Shown one piece after another: positions 11,974 to 61,423 of a stretch of DNA of 64,000 bases (positions are counted from its first letter, which is position 1; every line of letters starts with the position of its first letter). The translations under genes were made by a program, and so were the position numbers. The notes under the pieces are model-generated. The model made no database searches. It was not told the DNA's origin and saw nothing but the letters and a program-made list of their open reading frames with translations. Origin of the DNA: a virus (lineage: Duplodnaviria; Caudoviricetes); IMG/VR virus record IMGVR_UViG_3300020181_000012, positions 2,058 through 66,057 of that record. The stretch is one strand, 5' to 3'.

Positions 11974-12069
11974 ATGCAATCACAACTCAAACAATCAATC
12001 AGAATAGCTAAACAACGTCAAATCAAACAAGCTATTAACAATATCAAGCAGAATATCTTCATATTCTAA
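11974..12069 (+). CDS. 31-aa basic peptide (paralog of 23887-24015)
   Basis: MQSQLKQSIRIAKQRQIKQAINNIKQNIFIF; shares K..QIK.AI...K...(F/Y)IF with the antisense peptide. Confidence 0.6.
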   Translation: MQSQLKQSIRIAKQRQIKQAINNIKQNIFIF

Positions 12070-12329
12070 CCTTGCCAACAATCAGTCTTAGCAAGCTCTC
12101 TTGATTTAATTGTAATCCAATGTCTCTCATAAGATAATTGCTGCTTAATATATTCAAGATCTTTAAGATAATAATTAACAGCAAGCTTAACATACATCTC
12201 ATAAACATAACCACGATTAAGATTATGTTCTTTCATATTCTTAATCAGAGTGTTAATCAACTTTTTATTATCAGGCATTACCTTAATAGGAACAAATGTG
12301 AGATTGGTGAAGTTTAAATCATGCCACAA
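12066..12329 (-). CDS. Hypothetical protein, isolated antisense gene in the early region
   Basis: No competing plus-strand ORF here; the start may be the internal ATG (MPDNKK...). Confidence 0.5.
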   Translation of the reverse strand: MWHDLNFTNLTFVPIKVMPDNKKLINTLIKNMKEHNLNRGYVYEMYVKLAVNYYLKDLEYIKQQLSYERHWITIKSRELAKTDCWQG

Positions 12330-12465
12330 GTTCGGTTTATTTTATGAGATTATTCGAAGAATCGTACGTAATATTCCAAGAATATTGAGGCATTATACGC
12401 CTAATTTATAACAATTATATATAATATTTATAGTAATATCACAATATAATCAACACATTAATAAA

Positions 12466-12603
12466 ATGAATAAGTATTTAATAGTAAAAGCAAATGGTGA
12501 AATCATAGTATTAAATGCCTATTTTATTCAGGATTTAATTACAACACTAAAGAATGACTATAAATGGCTTGATACTGATATAACACATATAATCAAGCTA
12601 TAA
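12466..12603 (+). CDS. 45-aa hypothetical peptide
   Basis: Hand-found ORF downstream of a TATCACAATAT motif. Confidence 0.5.
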   Translation: MNKYLIVKANGEIIVLNAYFIQDLITTLKNDYKWLDTDITHIIKL

Positions 12604-12652
12604 AATTAATATTAACTTAAAAGCGTAAGACTACGATACAGTCAACAATACA

Positions 12653-12853
12653 ATGAGAATAATACTACAAAGAAGTCCTGACTCAGCTATACTTATAGAT
12701 ATTGGATATAATACTAAATTACATAGTTCTATGTATTGGTTATCTATTGATAGAGCGTATTATGAATATAATGAAAAAGATTATAGCCGAAGGCTAGTAC
12801 ATGCAAATAGTTTATTTACATGTTTTAAGCACTATAAGTATTGGAATAAATAA
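12653..12853 (+). CDS. Hypothetical protein
   Basis: Early-region ORF. Confidence 0.55.
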   Translation: MRIILQRSPDSAILIDIGYNTKLHSSMYWLSIDRAYYEYNEKDYSRRLVHANSLFTCFKHYKYWNK

Positions 12854-12862
12854 GAAATAATT

Positions 12863-13039
12863 ATGAAATACGCAATTATATTAAAGACTAAGAGAAATGT
12901 ATATCTAGTAGGCTTTACTAATGATCCAATAATACGAGATAATAAACATCCAATTGGAGAAAGATATACAATAGAACTAAAGGAGTTTGATAATTTGTTT
13001 ATTCCTTTAGAAGGAGATGCTGCTGTATACTTATCTTAA
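12863..13039 (+). CDS. 58-aa hypothetical protein
   Basis: Hand-found ORF MKYAIILKTKRNVYLVGF... Confidence 0.5.
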   Translation: MKYAIILKTKRNVYLVGFTNDPIIRDNKHPIGERYTIELKEFDNLFIPLEGDAAVYLS

Positions 13040-13047
13040 TAATCTTT

Positions 13048-13087
13048 TAAGTTAGCCCAATATCATTAATATGTGAGGGCTAACTTA
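13048..13087 (+). other. Stem-loop abutting the TATCACAATAT motif
   Basis: TAAGTTAGCCC/GGGCTAACTTA perfect 11-bp stem. Confidence 0.7.
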
Positions 13088-13122
13088 TATCACAATATAA
13101 ACTATAACTAAACTATAACAAC

Positions 13123-13590
13123 ATGGAAGCAATATATAAACTAATAGTAGCAGATACAAGTAAAGATGTAATTTCATTATACCTTAAACGTATAGTTTTA
13201 ACTATAACTGAGTTTGAGAATAATGCATTCAGAAGATTAGATACAATAATATCTTATGAAAGGTTCGGATATAAGTTAGTATATAATAAAGATATTATTG
13301 AATTATATGAGGCAGAATCATATACAGTATCTAAAGAAGAAAGGAAAGAAATATATAAATCGGCTTTACATCTAATTAATACAGGACAAAATAGATTCTG
13401 CTGTGATGCTATTGGAGTAGTAATACAAAAAGAATATCTACCAGTATTTCCGTTTGGAGCTGTAACCAAAGATTTATTTCCTGAGTTACATTCATTTAAA
13501 CCAGCAAATCATGGAATGGTATGGTGGTCAATGGAGGACAAGGATATTAGAATAAGAGTATTAACTAAATGTATAGAAATGTGTGAATGA
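13123..13590 (+). CDS. Hypothetical protein (FPEL..FKP/WW/CxEMC-type C-terminus)
   Basis: C-terminus resembles that of 14149-14403. Confidence 0.7.
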   Translation: MEAIYKLIVADTSKDVISLYLKRIVLTITEFENNAFRRLDTIISYERFGYKLVYNKDIIELYEAESYTVSKEERKEIYKSALHLINTGQNRFCCDAIGVVIQKEYLPVFPFGAVTKDLFPELHSFKPANHGMVWWSMEDKDIRIRVLTKCIEMCE

Positions 13591-13921
13591 TATGAAAAAG
13601 ATAATATTTATATTACTAATACTTACAGGTTGTAAATATAAAGAGCCAGAGACTAAATGGTTTGAATATGAAATAACTAATCTAAGAATAGATGATGATT
13701 CTGAATATCATTTTACATATACAAATCCAAGAACAGGATATGTAGAATCAGAAGATGATGTTTATACTGTAGAGGTATACAGAAATAATATATCTAAACC
13801 TATTTATAGAAAGCTATTACAAGAACTGACTCAATCAGGTAAGAAGTATTGGGTTAATACAGGAACAACACCTCAAATCATATTACCTATAAACTATAAA
13901 ATAGAAACATTTGATGATTAA
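13583..13921 (+). CDS. Putative lipoprotein
   Basis: MKKIIFILLILTG-C lipobox; likely start at the second Met. Confidence 0.7.
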   Translation: MNDMKKIIFILLILTGCKYKEPETKWFEYEITNLRIDDDSEYHFTYTNPRTGYVESEDDVYTVEVYRNNISKPIYRKLLQELTQSGKKYWVNTGTTPQIILPINYKIETFDD

Positions 13922-13924
13922 ACT

Positions 13925-14146
13925 ATGAGATGTAAACTAATATTACCACAAGATAATAGAGATCCTGATTCAATAAACGTATTTGAACAGAGATTTAAGA
14001 ATATAATGGGTAAAGAATTAACTGATTGGATGCTCATGTGTAAAATGCTAGATTTAGATGATTCTATTATATGGACAGATGGAGAATATAGATTAAGTAT
14101 AAGAGCAGATGATCCATTCTATAAGTTATATAAAATAGATAAATAA
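13925..14146 (+). CDS. Hypothetical protein
   Basis: Early-region ORF. Confidence 0.6.
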   Translation: MRCKLILPQDNRDPDSINVFEQRFKNIMGKELTDWMLMCKMLDLDDSIIWTDGEYRLSIRADDPFYKLYKIDK

Positions 14147-14148
14147 TT

Positions 14149-14403
14149 ATGACTAAAAAACAAACTATAAGTAAGTATAGAAAAAGATTTATATACTTAG
14201 TGTGGGCAAATAGGGTGTATAATGGTAGAAAAACATATTTAAGTACAGATACATTATCACAACTTAGTGAAGAGTTAGCACTATTTTGGCCACATAGATA
14301 TGGATCTATGAATGTAGATCTTTATACATCACAAGAACAAGCAGATAAGAATAGAGAAGCTAAAGTATTCTGCTTATTACTATGTGCAGAGATGTGTAAA
14401 TAA
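14149..14403 (+). CDS. Hypothetical protein
   Basis: Ends R...FCLLLCAEMCK, similar to 13123-13590. Confidence 0.6.
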   Translation: MTKKQTISKYRKRFIYLVWANRVYNGRKTYLSTDTLSQLSEELALFWPHRYGSMNVDLYTSQEQADKNREAKVFCLLLCAEMCK

Positions 14404-14432
14404 TTCTCCCCTTTACAAATAATAGTACAACT

Positions 14433-14663
14433 ATGATAACACTTATAAATATAAATGATAGTAGACTAGTAACACCTGGAGTAACTCTAGAATCAGTAGA
14501 GAGATCGGATATAAAATCTACTGATGTTATAGATCAACCTGATATGTTAATAGTATATGATTGTAAAAGCTTTAAGATATTAAAAAATAGGAGAACATAT
14601 CCTCTACCATTTGTAGTATATCCTATACATGTACTTGGTAGTATTGGATCATTAATTTATTAA
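14433..14663 (+). CDS. Hypothetical protein
   Basis: Early-region ORF. Confidence 0.55.
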   Translation: MITLININDSRLVTPGVTLESVERSDIKSTDVIDQPDMLIVYDCKSFKILKNRRTYPLPFVVYPIHVLGSIGSLIY

Positions 14664-14670
14664 CAATCTC

Positions 14671-14781
14671 AAGATCTATTTGGAGATAGATGTTAGGTAG
14701 ACATAAGTATAACATACTTTGAGAAATGTATATTATACGTCGTAATATATCCTAGCTATAACTATCTCCTTATTAGATCTT
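14671..14781 (+). ncRNA. Multibranch structured intergenic element
   Basis: AAGATCTA/TAGATCTT, GGAGATAG/CTATCTCC, TTAGG/CCTAG nested helices with two inner hairpins. Confidence 0.5.
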
Positions 14782-14810
14782 AAACTTATCACAATATAAA
14801 CTACAAATAA

Positions 14811-15095
14811 ATGGATCAACTTCAAAACACAAAGGACGATTTAAGAAATCTTCTATTATATGTTAGAGCTATATACGAAGTATGGAAAAGACCTCATTAT
14901 ATAACATTAGAGGTATTAATACAGAATATAATAGCAAGAATTAAAGAGCCAGATTTAGGAAGAGATGAAATACACAAATGTCTACAGGCTGTAGAAGCAT
15001 GGTATAATTTTAACCCAAAAGACCATGTTGGAGAGACAGTATATAAGGAATTAGATATGATAATTCAGGGTTATTATATGTCAAATAATTTATAA
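14811..15095 (+). CDS. Hypothetical protein
   Basis: Preceded by TATCACAATATAA. Confidence 0.65.
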   Translation: MDQLQNTKDDLRNLLLYVRAIYEVWKRPHYITLEVLIQNIIARIKEPDLGRDEIHKCLQAVEAWYNFNPKDHVGETVYKELDMIIQGYYMSNNL

Positions 15096-15105
15096 ATATC
15101 ACAAC

Positions 15106-15327
15106 ATGAAAATGATTAATAAAGAAATCAATTCTGATGGTACAACTACTATTAGTGTTGCATATGAAAAAACACATTGGCTATTCTTTAAAAAAGTAGT
15201 TGTAAAGAAATATAAAGCTACTAGAAGATTAGTAGCGGAGTATTGGGTTTGGGTAGAACTACCTGACTATACAAGGGTAGGAGATAGATTATCATTCCAA
15301 TTAGATGAATGGAATAGAATGAAGTAA
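15106..15327 (+). CDS. Hypothetical protein
   Basis: Preceded by TATCACAAC-ATG. Confidence 0.65.
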   Translation: MKMINKEINSDGTTTISVAYEKTHWLFFKKVVVKKYKATRRLVAEYWVWVELPDYTRVGDRLSFQLDEWNRMK

Positions 15328-15330
15328 AAT

Positions 15331-15408
15331 ATTAGTCCATATCCAATTAGGCAGGACAGCATGAGTATACTAGTGTTGGTCAAGGGTCTTAACCTTGTAT
15401 GGACTAAT
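15331..15408 (+). ncRNA. tRNA-like cloverleaf (non-canonical)
   Basis: 11-bp acceptor-like helix, D-like arm TCC-AATTAGGCA-GGA, extended middle arm, T-like arm CAAGG-GTCTTAA-CCTTG; no CCA. Confidence 0.5.
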
Positions 15409-15424
15409 TATTAAATATCACAAT

Positions 15425-15613
15425 ATGGAAAACAATAAGAAATATGTAGTATTAGAACATCTAACACTACCAGATAGAGGATTAAGATTCTGGTCCTGCA
15501 CTAATGAGAACATAAATCTAGAATGGTATAAGATTATACTATATACAGATGATGAAGAAGAAGCAATTAAGAATTGCACAGATCACAATTTAACACGGAT
15601 AATAAAAATATAA
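15425..15613 (+). CDS. Hypothetical protein
   Basis: ATG at 15425 embedded in TATCACAAT-ATG; the track start at 15395 lies inside the cloverleaf. Confidence 0.6.
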   Translation: MENNKKYVVLEHLTLPDRGLRFWSCTNENINLEWYKIILYTDDEEEAIKNCTDHNLTRIIKI

Positions 15614-15622
15614 GATAACTAT

Positions 15623-15799
15623 ATGAACTTAATAATCTATATATTTTTGATTTATGTCTTATGTATGCTATTCGTAGCCATTAAAATAAGAAACACGAGT
15701 GAATTGAAAAGATATTTTATTCTAATATTTCTAGCACCATTTACCATAATATTTATTATTTTTAGTAAGGTTATAATAGGTGATTGGTTAGATGAATAA
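15623..15799 (+). CDS. 58-aa two-TM peptide
   Basis: Hand-found ORF MNLIIYIFLIYVLCMLFVAIKIRN...FILIFLAPFTIIFIIF. Confidence 0.55.
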   Translation: MNLIIYIFLIYVLCMLFVAIKIRNTSELKRYFILIFLAPFTIIFIIFSKVIIGDWLDE

Positions 15800-15803
15800 G
15801 ATC

Positions 15804-15998
15804 TTTATCCTGCTTGAAGTCAAACGGTAACAATAGTAGGTGCGAGTCCTACACTTGAAGAAATTCCGCAAGATAAGTTACAGTTATTCCAGTAGCGTTG
15901 TTTGATGTATATAGGTAATAGTCCAAACGGTTAATGGTAAGGTAAGCTCTTACTATCTTAGTAGGTATTACTCCATGCTGGAACATGGACAGGATAAA
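15804..15998 (+). ncRNA. Candidate structured ncRNA with T-loop and pseudoknot
   Basis: TTTATCCTG/CAGGATAAA closing helix; GTAGG-TGCGAGT-CCTAC; TCCATG-CTGGAA-CATGGA loop complementary to TTCCAG at 15887; no ORF. Confidence 0.6.
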
Positions 15999-16009
15999 TT
16001 ATTAAAAAT

Positions 16010-16141
16010 ATACTAATAGTTGATACTATATAAGGAAGAACACTTATATAGTCAGCTCTGGCTTGAAAGACTGCTAGGCAGTAATAACAAGTAAGCTAAT
16101 AACCTGATAGTAGTGGCGTCCTATAAATCAACTATTAGTAT
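16010..16141 (+). ncRNA. Second structured RNA domain
   Basis: Perfect 14-bp ATACTAATAGTTGA/TCAACTATTAGTAT helix enclosing several hairpins; no ORF. Confidence 0.55.
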
Positions 16142-16160
16142 TTTAAATTAAATAAGATAT

Positions 16161-16358
16161 ATGAATATAAAAGAACAAAACTCATCATTATATTACTATC
16201 TATTAGATTGTAAAAATGAAATTATAATGGGACCTAATAATAAATTCGTTGAAGAATTAATATTCAAGAGAATAGAGGAATTAGATAAGGATACCTTACT
16301 AAAAATTATGGAAATAGCTACTGAAATACGTAAAGATCAATTAGCAAATATAGTATAG
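16161..16358 (+). CDS. Hypothetical protein
   Basis: Early-region ORF. Confidence 0.55.
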   Translation: MNIKEQNSSLYYYLLDCKNEIIMGPNNKFVEELIFKRIEELDKDTLLKIMEIATEIRKDQLANIV

Positions 16359-16361
16359 CAT

Positions 16362-16736
16362 ATGAAACCAATATCAGAAGAACTTAGAAATAGACTTAAA
16401 ACAGAAGATCCTAGTCCTGAATTAGTATTAGAACTTCTTAAAGAGACAAGTCCAGATGAGTATTGTACTCGTCATTGGTGTGAAGGAGAATTTGATAATC
16501 CGGATAAATGTTGTATATTAGGTAGAATAGGGTATGAAGTATCTAGAGATCCAGTATATAGTCTCAAGGCAGAACATTATAGATCTATGGCTAGATCGTA
16601 CAAGTGTAGTCTTTCATCTATTAATGATGGAACTTCTCCAAAATATCAACAAGCCACTCCTTATGAAAGAGTTAAAGCTGCAATGGAAGATTTAATTAAA
16701 CTAAAACAAGATGAAAACACTGAGAAAAGTAATTAA
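16362..16736 (+). CDS. Hypothetical phage protein
   Basis: HWCEG...KCCILGRIG...SINDG pattern typical of small phage Cys/His families. Confidence 0.65.
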   Translation: MKPISEELRNRLKTEDPSPELVLELLKETSPDEYCTRHWCEGEFDNPDKCCILGRIGYEVSRDPVYSLKAEHYRSMARSYKCSLSSINDGTSPKYQQATPYERVKAAMEDLIKLKQDENTEKSN

Positions 16737-17025
16737 TTGGATTATAACTCCCCCTTACAAAAGAATGTCCGAGCTTAATAGTAAAATACGTAGTATTATG
16801 TATTTACTTATATCTGAGGATATAACACCAACACATTTAGAAGTAGTAGATATAAGAGTGATTAAAAATACTAATACTAATATGATTATAAGAGTTAGTT
16901 TAGGTAGGCCTGAACTCCTAATAGGAGAAGAAGGTAAGACTATCAATAGACTTGTTAATCAACTAGCTAAGGTATTTAGAAAGAAAGTAGAAATACAGAT
17001 TAAGGAAGTAAATGTATGGCTGTAA
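16711..17025 (+). CDS. Type II KH-domain protein (ribosomal uS3-like)
   Basis: RPELLIGEEGKTINRL...KVEIQIKEV matches the uS3 KH pattern RPG.(L/V)IG..G..I..L. Confidence 0.75.
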   Translation: MKTLRKVINWIITPPYKRMSELNSKIRSIMYLLISEDITPTHLEVVDIRVIKNTNTNMIIRVSLGRPELLIGEEGKTINRLVNQLAKVFRKKVEIQIKEVNVWL

Positions 17026-17294
17026 GAACACCTAAAACTATTAATGGATTAGTAAAAGCTATTGAACAGCATGCTGCTATTAGTGGTGGAGTAATAAGAG
17101 AAATATGGAGATGTAATGCTGGATGGGGAATAATATATTCTCTAACTCCTATAGCTATGCAAAGAGCTAAATATGGAAATATAATAGTATATGGATATTA
17201 TCCTACTCTAGAACAATGTATTAAGGAAGAATATAAAAGAATAGTATTAAGGCAAAAAGTAAAAGGCGGTGAAGCCGAATGGGTAATTAAATAA
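17016..17294 (+). CDS. Hypothetical protein
   Basis: In-operon ORF. Confidence 0.6.
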   Translation: MAVRTPKTINGLVKAIEQHAAISGGVIREIWRCNAGWGIIYSLTPIAMQRAKYGNIIVYGYYPTLEQCIKEEYKRIVLRQKVKGGEAEWVIK

Positions 17295-17317
17295 TTTCAC
17301 AATATAAATATCACAAT

Positions 17318-17596
17318 ATGTCAGCATCAATAAATAGACTATCAAATAGTCTACAATCAGTTCAAGATATAATTATTGGTATATATGTAGATCCAACTAA
17401 AAGGATTGAACTTATAGTATCAAAAGGAGATTATACCTTTAAAACAGTTAGTGTTGGATCTCTATTTGGATTATCTATTAGTAATTATCCCTTAAATAGA
17501 GTCATACATTTATTTCCTGATAACAAAACACTATCGGAAATGATGCAAGATCCTATAGAGTTTGATAAATGGTGTAAAGAGAACATTAACATATAA
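17318..17596 (+). CDS. Hypothetical protein
   Basis: Preceded by a tandem TCACAATAT motif. Confidence 0.65.
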   Translation: MSASINRLSNSLQSVQDIIIGIYVDPTKRIELIVSKGDYTFKTVSVGSLFGLSISNYPLNRVIHLFPDNKTLSEMMQDPIEFDKWCKENINI

Positions 17597-17606
17597 TTAT
17601 CACAAT

Positions 17607-18431
17607 ATGAAAAACAATAACAAAGTAATTGGACAAGAGGTACTAATTAAAGAAGTTAATAAAATATTAGAAATATTTAAGGCTTCTAAATGTACTGTTA
17701 GACCACATTTTATATTAACTGGACCATCAGGTAGTGGTAAATCATTTACCATTAAGAATCTAGCTCAAGAGAATGAATTAGGATTCTTAGAAATTAATGC
17801 TGCACAGCTAACTAAAGAAGGTACATCAGGTAATAGTTTATCTAAGGCTCTATCTCCATTATCACAATTAGGTTCTAAACCATGTATTGTATTTGTAGAT
17901 GAATTTGATAAGCTATTTATATCTGGTAATTCTAATGATAGTGCTGCACATGAAAGTACAACAGGAGTTCAGAATGAATTCCTTAAAGTATTAGAGTCAG
18001 ATACAGCTAGTGTATTCGGTGATTATGGTAAATACATTAATGTGCCAATTAAGAATGTATTATTTATATTTGCTGGTGCATTTAATGGTGAAGAGAATAT
18101 AAGTCTTGATAGACTAAGAGAAATAGGTCTAAAGACTGAATTTCTTGGTAGAGTGGGATTAGTATATAATACTATGCCTTTAACTCTTGATTCATTGTAT
18201 GCTATTATAGATAAATCTGAACTTTTAAGCAAATATCTTGAATTATTTGAAGGTGTAGATAGAGAGCAAGTTACATACGAGCTTAAAGCCTATATTAAAA
18301 GAAATTATGAGATGAATACGCTAGGAGCTAGATTAATCAATACACTTATTCATCAGTATTTCATCAAAGGTGGAAAACTAGGTGAAGAAGAAGTAAAAGA
18401 TATGTCTTTTCAGAAGAAGCTAAAGATGTAA
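17607..18431 (+). CDS. ClpX/HslU-clade AAA+ ATPase, minimal form
   Basis: VIGQE, GPSGSGKS, FVDEFDK, GVQNEFLKVLE, FIFAGAF, GLKTEFLGRV, LGAR; start at 17607 (TATCACAAT-ATG). Confidence 0.85.
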   Translation: MKNNNKVIGQEVLIKEVNKILEIFKASKCTVRPHFILTGPSGSGKSFTIKNLAQENELGFLEINAAQLTKEGTSGNSLSKALSPLSQLGSKPCIVFVDEFDKLFISGNSNDSAAHESTTGVQNEFLKVLESDTASVFGDYGKYINVPIKNVLFIFAGAFNGEENISLDRLREIGLKTEFLGRVGLVYNTMPLTLDSLYAIIDKSELLSKYLELFEGVDREQVTYELKAYIKRNYEMNTLGARLINTLIHQYFIKGGKLGEEEVKDMSFQKKLKM

Positions 18432-22641: not shown

Positions 22642-23145
22642 ATGAAAAAAGTAATTAGAGTAACCAAAGTAAGTGAAGTAAAACAAGACAATGGTGCAAA
22701 ACAAGAACACAGGAATTACAAAACTATTTCCTTTTCTACCCCAAGTGTAGAAGCAGTTCCAGATGGTTTTGGTGGTGTTATCCAAGCTGCTGTTAAACCA
22801 AGGGAAACATCTATTAATGTATATGAGAAATCATATCTTGACAATAAGATGGAATTTGGTTACGATGCTAAAGTAGGAGATGCATTCCTTGGAGATATTG
22901 TAACTCGTATGGTAACTCCTTATGCTATTCCTTCTAATAAGGAGGGAGAAGAGGATAAAATAGTAAATGCTTATACTACTATTGTTCTTGGAGATACTTC
23001 CAGTCCAAATTGGGAATCTATTGTTAAGGCTACTTTCAGAGCTAAAGGACATGAGCTACGTACTCCTGCACCTACTAATTTCTCTATTGCTAGAGATAGT
23101 GAAGCAGATCTAGCTAATTTTGAAAGTAAAAAGATAGTATTCTAA
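22642..23145 (+). CDS. Hypothetical beta-rich protein, likely abundant
   Basis: Strong A-rich leader, biased codons, own terminator. Confidence 0.75.
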   Translation: MKKVIRVTKVSEVKQDNGAKQEHRNYKTISFSTPSVEAVPDGFGGVIQAAVKPRETSINVYEKSYLDNKMEFGYDAKVGDAFLGDIVTRMVTPYAIPSNKEGEEDKIVNAYTTIVLGDTSSPNWESIVKATFRAKGHELRTPAPTNFSIARDSEADLANFESKKIVF

Positions 23146-23226: not shown

Positions 23227-23814
23227 ATGATAACCGAAAAAGTTAAAAACTTCTCTATAGCTAGAGGAGAAATGCGATTCAAAGCTAATGAGCTTACTTT
23301 TGATACAACAGGCAAGAAATCTAAGCCTATGATTGGTCTTTCTCATGGAGAAAAAATCAATCAAGTACATAAAAGACAAAGACAATTTGTAGAGAATATA
23401 AAACTTATTTTTGGCCTTACAAAAAAGAAGAAATTTGTTTCCGAAGAAAGAGCTGAAGATTTAGATAAAGTAATTGAGAGAACTAGAGTTAGGAATAGAA
23501 TCCTACTCGTAGAAATTGCTAAATTTAGAACTTCTGCAAAATTGGAAAATCAGCCTGAAATAGAAGATGCAAAAGAGTATACTGAATTCTTATCTGAGAA
23601 GGTAGATAAAGGTATAGATACACTAGTTAAAAGTAATGCATTAGAAATGGTATATTCTGATCTAATGAATTATGTACTATTGGAAAATCCGGAATTTTTT
23701 AGTAGGTTTATGAGGCAAGCACTTATACAGAGTACAACAGATACACTTGTAGGTTTTGTTACTCCTATACTTGCAGATCATGGATTCAAGGTATCAAGAG
23801 TAGAACAAGATTAA
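23227..23814 (+). CDS. Hypothetical helical protein
   Basis: 195-aa ORF. Confidence 0.75.
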   Translation: MITEKVKNFSIARGEMRFKANELTFDTTGKKSKPMIGLSHGEKINQVHKRQRQFVENIKLIFGLTKKKKFVSEERAEDLDKVIERTRVRNRILLVEIAKFRTSAKLENQPEIEDAKEYTEFLSEKVDKGIDTLVKSNALEMVYSDLMNYVLLENPEFFSRFMRQALIQSTTDTLVGFVTPILADHGFKVSRVEQD

Positions 23815-23817
23815 GAA

Positions 23818-23866
23818 TATGTAAGAGTAACTGATAGATCAATGCTATCAGTTACTTTCTTACATA
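23818..23866. terminator. Bidirectional hairpin terminator
   Basis: TATGTAAGA-GTAACTGATAG-loop-CTATCAGTTAC-tt-TCTTACATA, 20 bp, between convergent genes. Confidence 0.7.
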
Positions 23867-23886
23867 GATAGCTAGTTGGAAAAGAG

Positions 23887-24015
23887 TTAAAAGATGTAGA
23901 AGCCTTTCTTAGAAAGAAAGATAGCATTTTTTATCTGCTTCATTTTAGACTGCTTCACAGTAATATCCTTATTGCTGTTAGCTTTGATTGCAGGTTTTGT
24001 TAGAGTTGTTTCCAT
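23887..24015 (-). CDS. 42-aa antisense basic peptide (paralog of 11974-12069)
   Basis: METTLTKPAIKANSNKDITVKQSKMKQIKNAIFLSKKGFYIF; has its own promoter and terminator. Confidence 0.65.
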   Translation of the reverse strand: METTLTKPAIKANSNKDITVKQSKMKQIKNAIFLSKKGFYIF

Positions 24016-24060
24016 ATATTGTTAACTTATGAGTTCCGAAATTGTTTCTGATTACTTAAA

Positions 24061-24091
24061 CAAATTTAGAACATTTTTTACAGCTTGCAAA
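24061..24091 (-). promoter_or_regulatory. Consensus Bacteroidota housekeeping-sigma promoter
   Basis: Minus strand TTTG (24091-24088), 19 nt, TAAATTTG (24068-24061): exact TTTG-N19-TAnnTTTG. Confidence 0.75.
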
Positions 24092-24174: not shown

Positions 24175-26373
24175 ATGGAAATTAAGTTTATAACGGGCCG
24201 GGAGAATCACCAAGTAAGTTATCCAAGGGTAGAATTAGAGGAATGTAAAGAATTTCTCAGGAAGTTGGACATTATTTGTTTGGACACTGAAAATAGTAGC
24301 CTGTTTCCTCTTCATGCAGTACATCTATTATTACAGGTAGGAAATACAGAGACATGTTATGTTATAGATAGAACATCTGTAGAAATAGATTGGTTAAAGG
24401 AGTTTCAATCTAAGACAATAATAGGAGCTAACCTTAAATATGATTATGAAATTCTAAAGACAGCAGGAATTGAATTTAGAAACATGATAGATGTTATGGT
24501 AACTGAACAGACTAGTGGTATGGGTACTACTAGGAAGAATAGTTTAGATGCTATAATAGAGAGGAGACTAAATACAAAAGCTAGATTTGATAAGTCATTA
24601 AGAAATGAATTTATCAATGGTACAAAGAGCTTTGTATTTCATGATAGACATATAGAATACGCTGCTGATGATATACAGTATCTACTTGGAATAAGAAAGA
24701 TACAAAAGGAACTAATTATAGATAAATTAGGTTTAGGATTCTTATTAGATAATATTGAGTTTCCTTTAATGCCTATATTAGGGGATGCTGAGTTGAGAGG
24801 TATCAACTTTAATATACCTAAGTGGAGAGAAAATATAATTAAGAATAAGAAAAAGAAGTATGAGATAGAACTTAAACTTGATGAACAGTTAACCTTGTTA
24901 TCTGAAGGGGAGAACACGTCAATAAAAGCAATAGATGAAATGAAGCCTATTGATGCTTTTAAGGTAATAAAGGGAGGTAGATTTTCACGTAAACGTAATG
25001 ATTTACATAATGCTATCCAACCAGATATATTTGGGAATGAAAAGATAATTAAAGTTAAGAATAAAGCTAATGTTAATTGGGGTTCCCCTACACAAGTTAA
25101 GGATATATTTAGGAAGCTAGGACAACCACTACCAATAGGTAAAGAGAAGAAGGAAAGTATAGGTGTGGAGTATCTTAAGCAATATCTTATAGATTATCCT
25201 AAGAGTAAGATGTATAGGCTCGTTGAGCTTTTAATTGAATATAGCGATGTTACTCAGAAGATAAGCGCATTTGGTCAGGGACATATAGATATAGTAAGTC
25301 CTGTATCTGGTAGAATACATACTATATATACTCAAGCAGGAAGTGCAACAGGTAGATTTAGATCTGGTAATATGGAGCATGGTATGTTTAATTCACAACA
25401 GATACCTGCTGATAATGATTATAGAGATTGTTTCTATGCAACTCCTGGATATAAAATATTAACAATAGATTTATCTTCTGCTGAGTTAATTATATTAGGA
25501 TCACTAGCAAAAGATCCAAAACTATTAGAATTACAATCTAAAGATATACATAGTTATCTTGCTATTGCAGCTTATAATAATATACTTCTTGATATTAGAA
25601 AGACAATACTTGCCAGAAAAGAAGGTATTAAAGAACATCATATTAAGCAAGTACAAGATTTGTTATCTGGACATAAAGACGATGAAAAGATTACTTTTGA
25701 AAGAGCTAAGGTAATACTTGAAAACTTTATGGAAGGAGAACAGCTTACTATTTCTAAGAAAAAAGATAGTGATAAACCTGATGCTAAATATATAGAATTT
25801 GGATGGTTAAGAGATGCATTTAAGAACGTTGTATATGGTCTTATATATGGTGCTACTGCTAAGAGAATATCTGAAGTATTAGGAATAAATACATCTTGGG
25901 CAACTGTAGTTCTCAAAACTCTTAGAGCTGAGCTTCCAGTTACATTTGCCTATCTAGATGGAGTAGCAGCACAAGCTGTTAATGAAGGGTATGTAATATT
26001 ATCCGAGAGAACTAAAGCTAGAAGATGGTTCCAGAATGTACTAGATGCTAAAAAGAATAGAATTCCTTTATCTAATACAGAGAAAGGAGATGTTGAAAGA
26101 GAAGCTAAAAATGCACCTATTCAATCAACTAATGCATGGATTGTTAAAGAAGCTATTGTGAGAATTGCTAATGAATATATCAGACCAAATAATTTAGATG
26201 CACATTTAATAATGCAGGTTCATGATGAACTTGTATATGAGTTCAAAGAAGAGTTAGAAGGAACATTTGATAAAGAAGTCCATCGTATATTAACTGATAC
26301 AGCATCTAGATATCTTGCAGAAGGTGTATCTATGGGAGCAAGTTATCATGTTATGGATACATGGCATAAATAA
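24175..26373 (+). CDS. polA: DNA polymerase family A with 3'-5' exonuclease
   Basis: ExoI CLDTEN, ExoII GANLKYD, ExoIII YAADD; motif A DLSSAEL, motif B R.AFKNVVYGLIYG, motif C QVHDEL. Confidence 0.95.
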   Translation: MEIKFITGRENHQVSYPRVELEECKEFLRKLDIICLDTENSSLFPLHAVHLLLQVGNTETCYVIDRTSVEIDWLKEFQSKTIIGANLKYDYEILKTAGIEFRNMIDVMVTEQTSGMGTTRKNSLDAIIERRLNTKARFDKSLRNEFINGTKSFVFHDRHIEYAADDIQYLLGIRKIQKELIIDKLGLGFLLDNIEFPLMPILGDAELRGINFNIPKWRENIIKNKKKKYEIELKLDEQLTLLSEGENTSIKAIDEMKPIDAFKVIKGGRFSRKRNDLHNAIQPDIFGNEKIIKVKNKANVNWGSPTQVKDIFRKLGQPLPIGKEKKESIGVEYLKQYLIDYPKSKMYRLVELLIEYSDVTQKISAFGQGHIDIVSPVSGRIHTIYTQAGSATGRFRSGNMEHGMFNSQQIPADNDYRDCFYATPGYKILTIDLSSAELIILGSLAKDPKLLELQSKDIHSYLAIAAYNNILLDIRKTILARKEGIKEHHIKQVQDLLSGHKDDEKITFERAKVILENFMEGEQLTISKKKDSDKPDAKYIEFGWLRDAFKNVVYGLIYGATAKRISEVLGINTSWATVVLKTLRAELPVTFAYLDGVAAQAVNEGYVILSERTKARRWFQNVLDAKKNRIPLSNTEKGDVEREAKNAPIQSTNAWIVKEAIVRIANEYIRPNNLDAHLIMQVHDELVYEFKEELEGTFDKEVHRILTDTASRYLAEGVSMGASYHVMDTWHK

Positions 26374-42100: not shown

Positions 42101-42349
42101 ATGACAAATCAAGAAGAAAAACCAAAAGTAGAAATTAATACTCATAATATTAAAGCATGTAGATACTATAAACATTATAAAGGTGGAACATACTTTGTAA
42201 ATGGATTTGTTATACATGAGAAATCAGGTAAAACTGCGGTTATATATACTGATGGTTTTAACTCTTTATCTTTTGTTAGATTTGCCGAAGAGTTTGTAGA
42301 GAAAGTTGAAGGAGGTCAATTAAGATTTACATTAATGGAAAAGAAATGA
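42101..42349 (+). CDS. DUF1653-like protein
   Basis: YKHYKGGTY...E......VIY...FVR...EF....RF. Confidence 0.7.
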   Translation: MTNQEEKPKVEINTHNIKACRYYKHYKGGTYFVNGFVIHEKSGKTAVIYTDGFNSLSFVRFAEEFVEKVEGGQLRFTLMEKK

Positions 42350-44625
42350 AAATAGAAAATCCAAAGCACTTAGAAGTTAAGAGTGTAGGAGAACTTGCTG
42401 ATAGTAAGAAAGCTGGTATAGCTGAAAACAGTTTACCATTTGTTTTCGATATTCTATCAAAACAACTATACTCTAATCCTATAGGGTCTATTGTTAGGGA
42501 GATAACATCTAACTGCTTTGATAGCCATAAAGAAGCTAAGGTTGATGATCCTGTAATAATAAGAAAAGTATGGGATAAAGAAGATAAACAATATTATATT
42601 GAATTTGAAGATTTTGGTGTAGGTCTTTCTCCTGAAAGAATGGAAAGTATTTATATGAATTACTTTTCATCTACAAAGAGAGAAAGCAACGAACAAATAG
42701 GTGGATTTGGACTAGGTAGTAAAACTCCTTTATCATATAGTGATATGTTTTATATTACTACTAGATATGAAGCTATTGAATATCAGTATATTTTCCATAA
42801 GGGGGAAAATACACCTACTTTAGAAACACTATCTGAAGAAGAAACTCTTGAAAGAAATGGTACAATCATTAGGATACCTATTAAGAATACAAGGAATTAT
42901 CCTTATGACGATGAATGTCATTTATTTGAAAAGGAGTTAAAAAGTCAACTATTATATTTCGACGATGTTTACTTTGAAGGATGGAATATTAATAATGAGT
43001 ATACAATATATGAAGGTCAATACTTTAAGTTTAGATCTGATATATTCCAGGAAAAACTTATGCATATATGTATAGGAAAAGTTACATACCCTATAAACTT
43101 TAATGAAGTTAAAGTATATAATAACAAACTTCCTATAGGTATTAAATTTGAAATAGGTGAATTACCTGTAACTCCATCTAGAGAAGAAATTAGATACACT
43201 GATGCATCTAAGAAACTAATCGCTGAAAGAATAGATTTGGCTATTAAGGAAATAATAGAAAAATACGATTCTCAGAATCCAGAAATTAGTGATATAACAG
43301 AGTTCTTAAAATTAAGAAATACTAGACCAAGAATCATATTTGATGAAGAATCAAAGCATGTACTGTTTATAGATAAATTTATACAGGAAAGCAAATATAG
43401 ATTCTCCCCTATAGTGAACATAGGAGCTAAGAAAACTCCTAAGAATCTATTCTTTGAATGGGGAATACTTGGTTACATATATGATGGTAAGTTTAGAGAG
43501 TCAAAAGAAGATTTTCTTGATGATTATATAGAACGAAAGTGTGTAATCCTAGAACATGGAGAACATGTATCTAAATATGCAGCTATTTATATATGGGAAA
43601 CTTTAGGTAAGACGTATATAATTAAAAGGAAGAATATAGATTATAATGATAAGTATAAAATACTAGGATTATCTACTAAACAATTAGGCAAAGCAAGAGT
43701 AATGTCTAATTATAGCAAGATAATGAATAGTATAATACAAACTCGTAATATTCATTACTCTAGCGTCAAACCTACAGATGAGTGGATAGCTGAATATAGA
43801 AAAAGTATATATACTAATACTAATGCTTATTTAAGGAAAGCAGCTAAGAAAGTGTTTATAAGACATTATCTATGGGGAAATGAAGGAGATGAAGTTCCTG
43901 AGACTGATCTAATGAATAGGACTGGTATTACTATATATGGATTCAGAGAAGATAAAGATCTTCTACAAAAAGTGGCAGATATTGCTAAATGTAAAGCTTC
44001 TTTTCATAAAGGAAGAAGAAAAGCTATAATAGTAATACAAGTATCAAAATCTGTTGAAAAGATATTTGATGAAAATCCTAAAGCTATTCATTGTTCTAAA
44101 TTCTTTAAAACTAAAGTATTTAAAAAGATAGCTACTGCTCATTTACTTCATAAGTCATTATCTTTCTATAATTATACTACTTATTCAGATTTTATAAAGT
44201 CTTTCAAGGATAAAGAGGATAAAGTAAGATACGCAAAAGAATTTATAGCTAAACATAGAAAATATGATAGTGATTATGTTTTACCTATTGCCAAGGAGAA
44301 TAATGCTTTTATTCCTGAAGTAGCTAAATTAGTAGAAGATTTAAAATTTGATGATGTTGAAATACCAAAGTTAATAAGAGCATTAGATTTAGCTTTTCCT
44401 AGTAGAAGAGATTTTCTAAGAGATGAAGTTATAGAATATTTAAAACTAAAGAAAATAAGATTAAATAACATTTTTTATTTAAAACCTAAACAAGAAGAAA
44501 ATGGGAACCCAGAACAACAAGAAGAATCAACCTGCGAAGAAAGTAGCACAGAAACAACCAACGACCAAGTCGAAGTTCAAGCAACTAGTAGCGAAGAAGA
44601 TAGGAGCGAACATGATAGTGACTAA
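42346..44625 (+). CDS. rIIA: rIIA-like GHKL ATPase protein
   Basis: LYSN....VREITSNCFDSH, DFGVGLS, IGGFGLGSK, NGT GHKL motifs; GELPVTPSRE. Confidence 0.8.
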   Translation: MKIENPKHLEVKSVGELADSKKAGIAENSLPFVFDILSKQLYSNPIGSIVREITSNCFDSHKEAKVDDPVIIRKVWDKEDKQYYIEFEDFGVGLSPERMESIYMNYFSSTKRESNEQIGGFGLGSKTPLSYSDMFYITTRYEAIEYQYIFHKGENTPTLETLSEEETLERNGTIIRIPIKNTRNYPYDDECHLFEKELKSQLLYFDDVYFEGWNINNEYTIYEGQYFKFRSDIFQEKLMHICIGKVTYPINFNEVKVYNNKLPIGIKFEIGELPVTPSREEIRYTDASKKLIAERIDLAIKEIIEKYDSQNPEISDITEFLKLRNTRPRIIFDEESKHVLFIDKFIQESKYRFSPIVNIGAKKTPKNLFFEWGILGYIYDGKFRESKEDFLDDYIERKCVILEHGEHVSKYAAIYIWETLGKTYIIKRKNIDYNDKYKILGLSTKQLGKARVMSNYSKIMNSIIQTRNIHYSSVKPTDEWIAEYRKSIYTNTNAYLRKAAKKVFIRHYLWGNEGDEVPETDLMNRTGITIYGFREDKDLLQKVADIAKCKASFHKGRRKAIIVIQVSKSVEKIFDENPKAIHCSKFFKTKVFKKIATAHLLHKSLSFYNYTTYSDFIKSFKDKEDKVRYAKEFIAKHRKYDSDYVLPIAKENNAFIPEVAKLVEDLKFDDVEIPKLIRALDLAFPSRRDFLRDEVIEYLKLKKIRLNNIFYLKPKQEENGNPEQQEESTCEESSTETTNDQVEVQATSSEEDRSEHDSD

Positions 44626-49771: not shown

Positions 49772-49966
49772 ATGCCACTAAAGAGATACCTAGTTAGAAC
49801 AGAATTTGGAGATTATTATCAACATGATAATTTATCAGATGATATGATTGAGCAATGTAAGGATGGAATTGTTGATATTGTAGATACTCATGAAGGTAAA
49901 GAGATGTTTACAAATGGAGAATGGGAGCCAGTTGAAGAATGGGAAGAAGATAGTGAAAATGATTAA
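49772..49966 (+). CDS. Acidic hypothetical protein
   Basis: Last gene of the plus arm. Confidence 0.65.
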   Translation: MPLKRYLVRTEFGDYYQHDNLSDDMIEQCKDGIVDIVDTHEGKEMFTNGEWEPVEEWEEDSEND

Positions 49967-49967
49967 G

Positions 49968-50009
49968 AATAAAAGCCTAGTAGAGAGTATCTACTAGGCT
50001 TATTTTTTT
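49968..50009. terminator. Bidirectional terminator between convergent arms
   Basis: AAGCCTAGTAGA-gagta-TCTACTAGGCTT with A tract on the left and T tract on the right. Confidence 0.9.
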
Positions 50010-53000
50010 ATTCTGTTTCTATTAATATTGTGAATTCCATTCCATGCATAATAAATTCCTCTGTTCCGTCTGTTAGAGTTAATTCTACAGTTATGTTATT
50101 CGCTATTGTATGATCTATAGTACCAGTAGCAGGTTCAGTAGTTAAAGCTCCTCCTTGGTCACTAGTACCACTTATAATTCTGTAGAAGTTATTATTTGCA
50201 CCTGTTAAGGCTTTAACATATACGGTCTGTTCTCTATAATAACTATCATTAGTAGTTGCAGCAGCTACAGTAAACTCTAAAAGTGTTACTCCTCCAAGTT
50301 TAACTCTAACTACAGATCCAGCTAAAGAACTATCAGGAGCTGACCAGCTAAAATAAGGAGCAAATCTAATAATACTTCCAACCTTTATGGTATTTGCAGG
50401 CACAGTTTTTGTATATAGTGTTTGAGTAGATGTAGTATTTGTGCTAATTGTCTCACCTGCTATATATCTTACGAACTTTTTAGATTCTGCTAATGCATTA
50501 TTTATCTGATTTTCTATATATGTAGTAAGCTCAACATTTAACGTTGGTGATCCTAGTACATTAGCAAATGAAACTGATCCTCCTATAAGAGGTATACGTA
50601 CCCAGTAATTATTTTTCATACATACTGCTAACTGAGTTCCATCATCAGACATCCTAAAATCACCTTCTTTTCCTGGAAATACTGCATCATCAGGAAATTC
50701 TTCTAATGTATTATCCTCAATAACTCTAAAGGTTTCTCTAGTTCTTATACTGGATGGTATTGCATTTAATGTTCTTGCAAAACCCGTAACAGTTTCTTGA
50801 GCTTCAGTATAAGCATACATTATACCTAATGGTGAAGCTTCTGTATCTGTTGTGACAGTAAGTTCATTACTAGGTAAAGAATCACCAACACTATTAGTAG
50901 CTATTATTCTTAATACATAAATTGTAGAAGCAGTTAAATTAATTAGTGTATCTTGGAATGTTCCGGCTGTTACTACTTTAAACTCAGTCCAAACTCCTCC
51001 TATATATCTCTCTATTATTACTTCAGCTTCGTTAGTAGAATTTAATATCCAACTAATAGTAAGACTTGTATCAGACTTTGTTATTAGTGTTAAATTACTT
51101 GGAGCAGTTGGAATAACAAGAGGAGCTGTTCCAGTAGTAGCATTAGTTGTAGTATAACTAGAACTACCTGCCAAGTTAGTAGCCTTAACTCTGAAATTAT
51201 AAAGAGTATTAGCAATTAATCCTGTAATACTTCTACCTGTAATACCAGCTTCTAATGTAGCATGAACCGTCCATGAACTACTAGCATTAGTTTTATATTC
51301 AACTACAATATTCTCTTCATCAGTAGAATTAATAGTCCAAGTTAAATCAACTCTTGAATCTGATATAACATTTGCACTCAATCCAGATGGAGCAAGTGGA
51401 GTATTTGGAGCTAAATTTAACGCTGCAAGTCTCTCAAATCGATAAGCTAATGGAGTACCACCTACCTGTAAAGCTCCTGCATCTACATCATTCCAATCAA
51501 TAGTATTACCATAATAATCTTTAGTAATTCCATAAGCTGATAAATCAACTCCTGCGCCTTCTGCTGGAGATCCTTCTAATGGAGTATAGTCCCAATTAAC
51601 TGGATCTCTAAACATAGCTAAATCCATTGATCCTAGTACAACATTAGGTTCAATAGTTTTAGAAACTTTTGAAGCTACGTTTATACTAGTTGGTCCTCCA
51701 GGTCTAACTACAAATAGATTGTTTCTTAAATCTACATGATCTAATGGACAATTTAAATCAACTAGAACATCAGCAATATTTGGATCAGCTACATATAAGA
51801 ATGAGTTATTAAAAACCCTAGCATATTGAGAAGATCCCGGAATATTAGACAATGCAGGATCATCTGTACGGCCTCTCAAAGCTCCAAAAATAGCCCTGTT
51901 ATTGAAACTAAAGAAAATATTATGATGTACGCTACAGTTACCAGAAGGTCCAAACCAGATGCATTGTTGTCCACCCTCAATTATTACATTATATCTAAAC
52001 TCACCTGAAAAACCCTCTGCTAAATTAGCTCCTTCATTTTGTCCATTTCTTCTATCTCTAGAACTTTTGTAAGAGAAGTTTCTTTCAACTAAACTATCAG
52101 AAACGTTATTTTTAAGCTGAAATGCATCCCATCCATTAGTATAGCATTCATTATCATGTATATGTATGTGTCTAATATCATGAGGATATACAGTAGTAGA
52201 GTTAGGTCCAAGTGGTTTACCATTATGATAAAATCCATAACCACAATAAATTGCTTCTCCATCAGTAGCTGTAACTAAACAGTGATGTACACAAACATAT
52301 CTCATATCATGAGTATGCCTATAATACCCATCATCAAGTTGATTCTTAATAGATATACCTGCGAAACTAGCTGTATTTACATATACATAAGCTATTTCAA
52401 TTCCATCATAATTACCATTATTATATTGAATAGCTGAAGAAGCACCTGTTCCACTTCCTATACTCAATCCACAAGGATTTTCATATGTTCCTTGACCAAA
52501 AATAACTAAGTGATTATTATTCTGAGGTTTTAAACAAAATCCTGTATTTGTTCCTGCTTTATATAAAGTAACTGGTCCATCTACATTTGTAAGATATATA
52601 GGTGCACCAGGAAGACCTTGAACACCTTTAAGTGAAATTTTACCTGCTATTACACCCTCATCTGTTTTAAGTCCAATTGTATCTCCAGGTTGTAAATCTA
52701 ACATAACAGTAGTAGCTCCTGTTCCTATTGTAGTAATTGAAGCTTGTTCAAAATTAATAGCTAAGTCTCCACTATCAACGTTATTTACATAACCTGAAGC
52801 AACACCATTATCATATAATCTTACCTTACCTCCAGCTTCCCATCTAAACACATATCTACAATCAGCACTAGTCTTACCCATTGGTTGTCCTACATTTTCA
52901 GTAGATCCTAATGTAATTACAAATCCTGCATAAGCTTCACTTCCATCATCTCCAGTAGCCTTAACAAATATTTGATAACTCTTAGTTTTCATTGATCGGA

Positions 53001-61243: not shown

Positions 61244-61260
61244 ACCTTATAAAGATACCG

Positions 61261-61296
61261 AAAAAAAAAGACTCTTACCTGACATTCAGGTAAGAG
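61261..61296 (-). terminator. Rho-independent terminator
   Basis: CTCTTACCTGA-cat-TCAGGTAAGAG with a 9-nt U tract on the minus strand. Confidence 0.85.
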
Positions 61297-61423
61297 CCTT
61301 AATTTCTATCTATCTTTTTGAGGACTTTATTGGTAGACTATACCAGTAAGTTCATAAGTAAGTCGCAGCAGAAGATTATAGGGATCACAAACACTACTTG
61401 TTTTTTCATATGTTATAGTTTAT

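Follow-up and report, generated by a model that had tools for sequence, protein, structure and literature searches.

ORF42, a 42-residue open reading frame on the minus strand just upstream of the DNA polymerase gene polA of a soil phage, appears from sequence comparison to be a member of a rare, previously unnamed micro-protein family that is linked to polA in a small clade of uncultured phages. Judged on the same comparisons, ORF42 is very probably a real, conserved coding gene. An earlier note on this DNA had suspected an undescribed peptide family here, and the homologues that we found next to polA in two or more further phage lineages bear this suspicion out.

The micro-gene and its relatives beside polA

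The window, by which we mean the whole stretch of 64,000 nucleotides that was analysed, covers most of a 66-kb IMG/VR record that is ~50% complete and hence a fragment. The same phage is present on a 94.4-kb contig of a soil metagenome run, and a second soil study contains sequence-identical pieces at low depth, with no variants between the two soil DNA runs (X1, X2). The window has a G+C content of ~30% and encodes a large terminase subunit, tail proteins, a primase, DnaB-like and SF1/SF2 helicases, a ligase, UDG, ThyA, an RIIA-like protein and a family A polymerase; from ~12.4 to 49.8 kb it forms a gene array in which all called genes lie on the plus strand. A megablast search of the region against deposited phages returned no match, and the top deposited-phage matches of the window PolA are crAss-like phages at ~25% identity; we regard the source as an uncultured soil phage that is distantly crAss-like. 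Its host is probably a Bacteroidota bacterium, since Shine-Dalgarno usage is lacking (Shine-Dalgarno-like 4-mers precede 13 of 109 window genes, which equals the background of 12%), A is enriched at position -3 of the gene starts (59%) as in Bacteroidota translation initiation, and the PolA is nearest to crAss-like phages. The features on which the analysis turns are as follows.

11974 to 12069, plus strand: ORF31, 31 aa, ending ...QIKQAINNIKQNIFIF
22642 to 23145, plus strand: gene for a 167-aa protein, two genes upstream of polA, ending ...ANFESKKIVF
23227 to 23814, plus strand: 195-aa gene without a family match, convergent with ORF42, the hairpin being common to both
23818 to 23866, both strands: hairpin with arms 23818-23837 and 23845-23866, 20 pairs, a 2-nt bulge and a 7-nt loop
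24015 to 23887, minus strand: ORF42, 42 aa with a TAA stop, reading METTLTKPAIKANSNKDITVKQSKMKQIKNAIFLSKKGFYIF, tail ...IKNAIFLSKKGFYIF
24061 to 24091, minus strand: sigma-A-type promoter-like site, with TTTG at 24091-24088, a 19-nt spacer and TAAATTTG at 24068-24061
24175 to 26373, plus strand: polA, 732 aa, 3'-5' exonuclease and family A polymerase (PF01612, PF00476)
Locus L006, a complete 91.9-kb genome: micro-gene of 43 aa, 26 nt between the starts of micro-gene and polA, PolA 28% identical to that of the window
Locus L085: micro-gene of 52 aa, 71 nt between the starts of micro-gene and polA, PolA 35% identical

ORF42 is present in the sequence as had been claimed, and the proteins collected for this contig do not include it, in keeping with the remark that the ORF track had missed it. 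Its reading frame spans only 44 codons from stop to stop, and its start lies 159 nt from that of polA in divergent orientation. Single-sequence searches were unproductive: a word-index protein search with ORF42 alone found nothing, phmmer against 1.84 billion representative proteins gave 0 hits, and in 50,697 phage records tblastn matched neither ORF42 nor the protein P0036. We gathered ~180 loci around relatives of the window PolA and searched them by tblastn with ORF42 and ORF31, and for each query the best match was a minus-strand small ORF just upstream of polA in L006 and L085, although the pairwise E-values were 0.2-0.3. The position by polA is established at three loci (the window, L006 and L085), and at all three the micro-gene is the sole reverse-oriented gene among same-direction genes, placed immediately 5' of polA and divergent from it. 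By a rough estimate, such a match in position and strand has odds of about 1 in 100 at each locus, and it was seen at two.

The three peptides have a common ending, IK-x-A-x4-[KE][KR]-G-x-F-[IL]-F-stop, and a regular expression for this tail matched 3 of 37,659 stop-bounded segments, which were exactly the three polA-upstream ORFs. When profiles were built with one member left out, the held-out member was the top non-self hit among 38,023 six-frame segments (E = 6.8e-4, 7.3e-3 and 5.7e-2), the first of these values being that at which a profile from L006 and L085 alone retrieved ORF42 as its first non-self hit. L006 and L085 had been chosen for their resemblance to the window peptides, which makes this profile evidence circular in part; position and strand constitute the independent evidence. 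When 5.8 billion predicted proteins were searched with a profile, five called proteins were recovered at E = 3e-8 to 6e-19. Two of them are the L006 and L085 ORFs; the other three had been called by gene finders in other metagenomes, P0039, from a 71-kb contig, having 72% identity with the L006 ORF, and P0037 and P0038 being variants of that in L085. The family thus comprises seven sequences from three lineages. The homologue search by tblastn or profile that the earlier note had proposed, with a lack of conserved homologues named as the outcome that would speak against its reading, has therefore found family members in the L006 and L085 lineages.

Variation within the family follows a coding pattern. 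Identity within subgroups is 72-87%; start, stop and length are kept in all five independently assembled variants, and substitutions are concentrated in the N-terminal half, with the tail invariant within subgroups. The last 17 codons were compared in the DNA of the three distant members: nucleotide identity is 45-61%, and most identical residues are encoded by different codons, in 5 of 8 and 5 of 6 cases at a nucleotide identity of 45-53%. The micro-gene appears, on this codon evidence, to be constrained at the amino-acid rather than the nucleotide level.

The distribution of the family is sporadic. In IMG/VR, a degenerate DNA pattern that covers the tail and the stop codon matched only the L006 contig, and the same pattern in 596 Gb of prokaryote genomes (GTDB) matched 7 sites, all of them short non-ORF chance matches. 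Scans of IMG/VR with the window PolA, with P0002, P0006 and P0037, and with the alignments A3 and A4 yielded no closer relative, and the L006 contig was again the only family member; PolA proteins closer to that of the window do exist (P0002-P0006, 52-67% identical). The four IMG/VR relatives nearest by PolA (L003, L004, L005 and L026, 33-35% identity) have no such ORF, and the L006 genome has a single family copy. The L006 phage shares 51% identity with the window in its terminase and 28% in PolA. This distribution fits vertical inheritance in one clade, and mosaicism is also possible. In two other related genomes, G003 and G004, PolA is 33% and terminase 34-37% identical to the window, in contrast to the genome of L006 (G001), a difference that reflects either uneven rates or an exchange of replication and packaging modules.

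A possible second copy in the window

The 31-aa peptide encoded at 11974 had been put forward as a paralog of ORF42. The C-termini of the two peptides are identical at 9 of 19 positions without gaps, which is the best value among 16,836 C-terminal pairs drawn from 184 small ORFs; in windows simulated with a second-order Markov model, 9.5% give a pair matching at 9/19 or better. Against profiles built without it, ORF31 comes next after the true members (E = 0.016-0.046) with a score that 0 of 5000 shuffles reach, but an unrelated long ORF scores equally well against the same profiles. The ORF31 match has no gaps and runs right up to the stop codon, and with each of ORF42, L006 and L085 the peptide has 8 of 17 residues in common, encoded by mostly different codons. 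No counterpart of ORF31 was found in the relatives, including the complete L006 genome, and no host-type promoter was seen upstream of it. The profile score, the 8 of 17 residues in common and the anchoring at the stop codon stand on one side of the proposal, and the equal-scoring unrelated segment, the missing counterpart and the missing promoter-like site on the other; from these comparisons we lean towards ORF31 being a paralog of ORF42.

The stop codon of ORF31 overlaps by 4 nt (CTAA) that of a convergent 87-aa ORF (12066 to 12329, minus strand) at the switch between gene arms. In L085, too, the micro-gene and the gene upstream of it are convergent and overlap at their stops by 4 nt (L085 629-632).

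The flanking promoter-like site and hairpin

An exact Bacteroidota promoter had been described in front of ORF42. The -7 box of Bacteroidota sigma-A promoters has the consensus TAnnTTTG at position -12 to -5 (PMC9723704), and the site in the window contains both boxes at a spacing of ~19 nt and at a plausible distance from the start codon, its 3' end lying 45 nt ahead of the ORF42 ATG. As a pattern, however, the two blocks are not rare in the window: TTTG-N17-21-TAnnTTTG occurs 3 times against 2.06 expected, a count reached by 33 of 100 shuffles, and for TAnnTTTG alone the count is 97 where 84 are expected. Each of the three two-block matches runs antisense to the gene array. Upstream of the L006 and L085 micro-genes the -7 box is matched only nearly (TTAGTTTG and TTAATTTG, respectively), and neither has a -33 TTTG at the right spacing. 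The promoter is thus exact in the window, as the earlier note had it, but occurs at chance frequency and is not conserved in the two relatives. If ORF42 is taken as real, an exact two-block match within 100 nt upstream and on the right strand is expected ~0.002 times by chance, and for this reason the site is probably functional as far as its sequence indicates. [quoted passage not shown]

The claim of a 20-bp hairpin beside ORF42 proved accurate, and the structure is strongly non-random. It folds with -22.6 kcal/mol in the minus-strand RNA and -25.2 kcal/mol in the plus-strand RNA, and on either strand z is ~ -5.6, with 0 of 200 shuffles folding as well. It begins 4 nt past the stop of the convergent plus-strand gene at 23227 to 23814, which is not conserved in relatives, and lies 20 nt past the stop of ORF42. 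The minus-strand sequence that follows it is UUCUUAAU, with 5 U in 8, whereas the plus strand has no U run; a simple terminator scan did not call the hairpin because of the 2-nt bulge, and an Rfam scan returned sub-threshold snoRNA noise only. Stable 3' hairpins are present at all three loci (z -3.4 to -5.6), so that the cassette-like layout that had been noted in the window, with a lone reverse gene followed by a stable hairpin, recurs at L006 and L085. The hairpin of the window lies wholly outside ORF42, whereas in L006 and L085 it overlaps the last codons of the micro-gene, its 5' arm being formed by the KKG-I-F and RG-R-F codons. Because of this overlap with the KKG/RG codons, part of the nucleotide conservation at the L006 and L085 tail codons could serve RNA structure.

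These elements bear on the possibility that ORF42 is incidental, in which case the 360-nt gap would be a regulatory boundary made up of a terminator hairpin serving the upstream genes and the polA promoter region, and the likeness between the peptides would arise from AT-rich composition and from RNA or DNA structure. Such an account draws on the near-chance values of the promoter pattern and of the 9/19 identity, on the coincidence of the L006 and L085 hairpin arm with the KKG/RG-x-F codons, and on the lack of a significant match in single-sequence searches and of the ORF in the nearest IMG/VR PolA relatives. It does not explain why the likeness reaches IK-x-A, which lies outside the hairpin, why the identical residues are mostly encoded by different codons, or why five independently assembled variants retain the same start, stop and length; moreover, the tail pattern is confined to polA-upstream ORFs, and the window hairpin is clear of ORF42. 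We consider an incidental ORF unlikely.

Other repeated elements were recorded elsewhere in the window. The sequence TATCACAAYAT has 7 exact copies, all on the plus strand within the 5-kb early block 12437-17608 and several of them joined to, or just ahead of, start codons; with one mismatch it occurs 16 times against 6.9 expected, a count that no shuffle reaches. A phage-specific promoter or leader element is the probable explanation. Two long inverted repeats lie at 49955-50019 and 61245-61323, with arms of 30 and 38 nt, and the one at 49955-50019, where the plus and minus gene arrays meet, is probably a bidirectional terminator. Two plus-strand genes of the array were also assigned: 42346-44625, inside the replication block, encodes a 759-aa RIIA-like protein (phrog_612, E = 7e-63), and 17562-18431 a ClpX-like AAA+ ATPase (phrog_5534 at E = 1e-123), the latter having no homolog in G001, G003 and G004, the related complete or near-complete genomes compared.

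Predicted product and a candidate docking tail

The family peptides carry a net charge of +6 to +8 across 31-52 residues, so that the description of ORF42 as basic holds, whereas the description as amphipathic does not: the helical hydrophobic moment exceeds that of shuffles in only 1 of 7 members. AlphaFold2, run on the seven-sequence alignment, models residues 9-36 as a helix and residues 37-42 as a free tail (mean pLDDT 71), and the product is accordingly predicted to be one long helix followed by an unstructured hydrophobic C-terminal tail. It is this hydrophobic C-terminus, a seven-residue free end, and not the basic helix, that is the most conserved part of the family, with the tails reading GFYIF, GIFLF, GRFIF and NIFIF. 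The longest apolar run is 3-5 residues, which leaves no transmembrane segment, and no signal peptide was found in any family peptide. Searches of Pfam, PHROGs, PADLOC, PDB sequences and the ESM Atlas with the family peptides gave nothing usable, the nearest being a faint match of one member to a PHROG repressor family (E = 0.14). Two candidate readings of parts of ORF42 were set aside. The tail as a degron for the ClpX-like ATPase was rejected, as L006 keeps the micro-gene and has no homolog of the ATPase (E <= 1e-3), and so was a by-eye resemblance of AIFLSKK to the FtsZ C-terminal peptide, as the other family members do not have AIFLSKK.

The high charge would suit a small nucleic-acid-binding regulator, one that would bind DNA or RNA through its basic helix, either in the polA 5' region or where the modules meet, so as to adjust polA expression or the switch from early to middle, with the tail used for oligomerisation. 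Micro-gene and polA point away from each other, their control regions overlap (the starts are 26, 71 and 159 nt apart), this pairing is conserved, and the repressor match of one member points the same way. The peptides have no helix-turn-helix or ribbon-helix-helix signature, however, and no weighty Pfam or PHROG match; conservation peaks in the hydrophobic C-terminus instead of the basic helix, and ORF31, if a paralog, lies far from polA. A regulator of this kind is, in our judgement, improbable.

Were the product a toxic or membrane-active peptide aimed at the host, for instance a division or envelope inhibitor or a superinfection exclusion factor, its polybasic stretch and a hydrophobic C-terminal anchor would hold it on the inner membrane. 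The peptides are small and cationic with a hydrophobic end, the promoter-gene-terminator layout is like that of phage morons, and KKGF is also present in the membrane-targeting sequence of E. coli MinD. Against a membrane role are the short apolar runs, with neither a transmembrane segment nor a signal peptide, amphipathic moments that are not above shuffles in 6 of 7 members, and the lack of a match to any defence or toxin model, and a fixed place by polA in lytic-type genomes is atypical of exchangeable morons. We regard this explanation as very unlikely.

The explanation that we favour, and that as a whole we hold to be probably right, is a polA-linked coding micro-gene with a docking tail for a replication partner. 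The micro-gene would be kept as the only reverse gene in a long same-direction replication block, ending at a stable hairpin; the C-terminal tail would serve as a short docking motif, fitting into a hydrophobic pocket on its partner, a replication protein of the phage or the host, and the basic helix would contact nucleic acid or the partner surface. A docking role is favoured because a free hydrophobic C-terminus with basic residues ahead of it is the most conserved part of a protein too small to fold, and a replication partner is the most likely one because the linkage to polA is conserved. Taken separately, the proposal that the family tail acts as a docking motif is a tentative one by analogy, and the identification of that partner as a component of the replisome is doubtful. 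A single complex prediction of ORF42 with the window PolA scored 0.02, which weighs neither way on binding.

The closest parallel for such a tail is in phage T4, in which the polymerase gp43 and the proteins gp33 and gp55 have interchangeable C-terminal tails that bind the sliding clamp (PMC2988020). The family resembles these proteins in its short hydrophobic motif at the extreme C-terminus, its poorly conserved linker, the presence of several such proteins per phage, the linkage to replication or transcription genes and the small size of the carrier (T4 gp33 has 112 aa). In contrast, the T4 epitopes are hydrophobic and acidic, whereas the family tails are hydrophobic and basic and thus do not fit an acidic epitope of the T4 type, and there is no sequence homology. 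No sliding clamp gene was found among the 20 replication-block proteins scanned, in a record that is part of the genome only.

Bacterial beta-clamp-binding motifs, QL[SD]LF or QLxLxL and often C-terminal, offer a second comparison, and small phage polypeptides, with examples from Twort and G1, bind DnaN and can block host replication. The family tails are likewise hydrophobic penta- or hexapeptides with a terminal Phe, but have Gly or Asn in place of Gln and an aromatic residue instead of Ser or Asp at position 3, so that only the last two positions fit QL[SD]LF. A third comparison is with the C-terminal tails of SSB proteins (E. coli SSB ...DDDIPF; the terminal Phe of T7 gp2.5), which are protein-docking hubs. 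These also have a free C-terminal end, hydrophobic residues with Phe, and docking on replisome partners; the known ones are acidic, unlike those of the family.

The last comparison acquires a counterpart within the window itself. Endings of the form [KR][KRQ]-x0-3-hydrophobic-hydrophobic-Phe are found there in three ORFs only, ORF42, ORF31 and the 167-aa protein, and the model of the latter is all-beta (pLDDT 50) with sub-threshold Foldseek matches mostly to SSB/OB-folds (E >= 0.04). The basic-hydrophobic tail might then be a docking code common to an SSB-like 167-aa protein (...FESKKIVF), ORF42 (...SKKGFYIF) and ORF31 (...KQNIFIF), with the micro-proteins as tail-only mimics, either competing for the same pocket on a polymerase or replisome hub or pre-loading it. 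This idea is weakened by the sole homolog of the 167-aa protein (L003 1803-2342), from which the tail is absent, and by the lack of such a tail in any other L006-phage ORF of at least 60 aa, and we give it little credence. If true, it would parallel the T4 gp43/gp33/gp55 tails in the clamp-less PolA replisome of a crAss-like phage, and a shared docking code would show how such a replisome is organised or regulated; if not, the finding adds one more small phage protein family, from a handful of metagenomic contigs.

By analogy, the family may be akin to small phage accessory proteins in moron-like cassettes that carry a C-terminal docking motif. It has in common with morons a small, self-contained gene with a promoter-like site and a hairpin, oriented independently of the surrounding operon. 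Morons, however, are typically sporadic, exchangeable and found in temperate phages, whereas here the position by polA is kept at 28-35% PolA identity, and the L006 micro-gene is only 26 nt from the polA start codon.

Annotation routinely misses tiny phage genes, and the unannotated ORF42 appears, from its sequence, to be one that is under selection. Environmental crAss-like phages are little studied, with almost no accessory functions known, and in this group a micro-gene is tied to polA across phages whose polymerases have diverged to 28-35% identity. Its conserved tail gives a concrete hypothesis for what such a gene may do, namely tail-dependent binding to a replication protein or a host hub protein.
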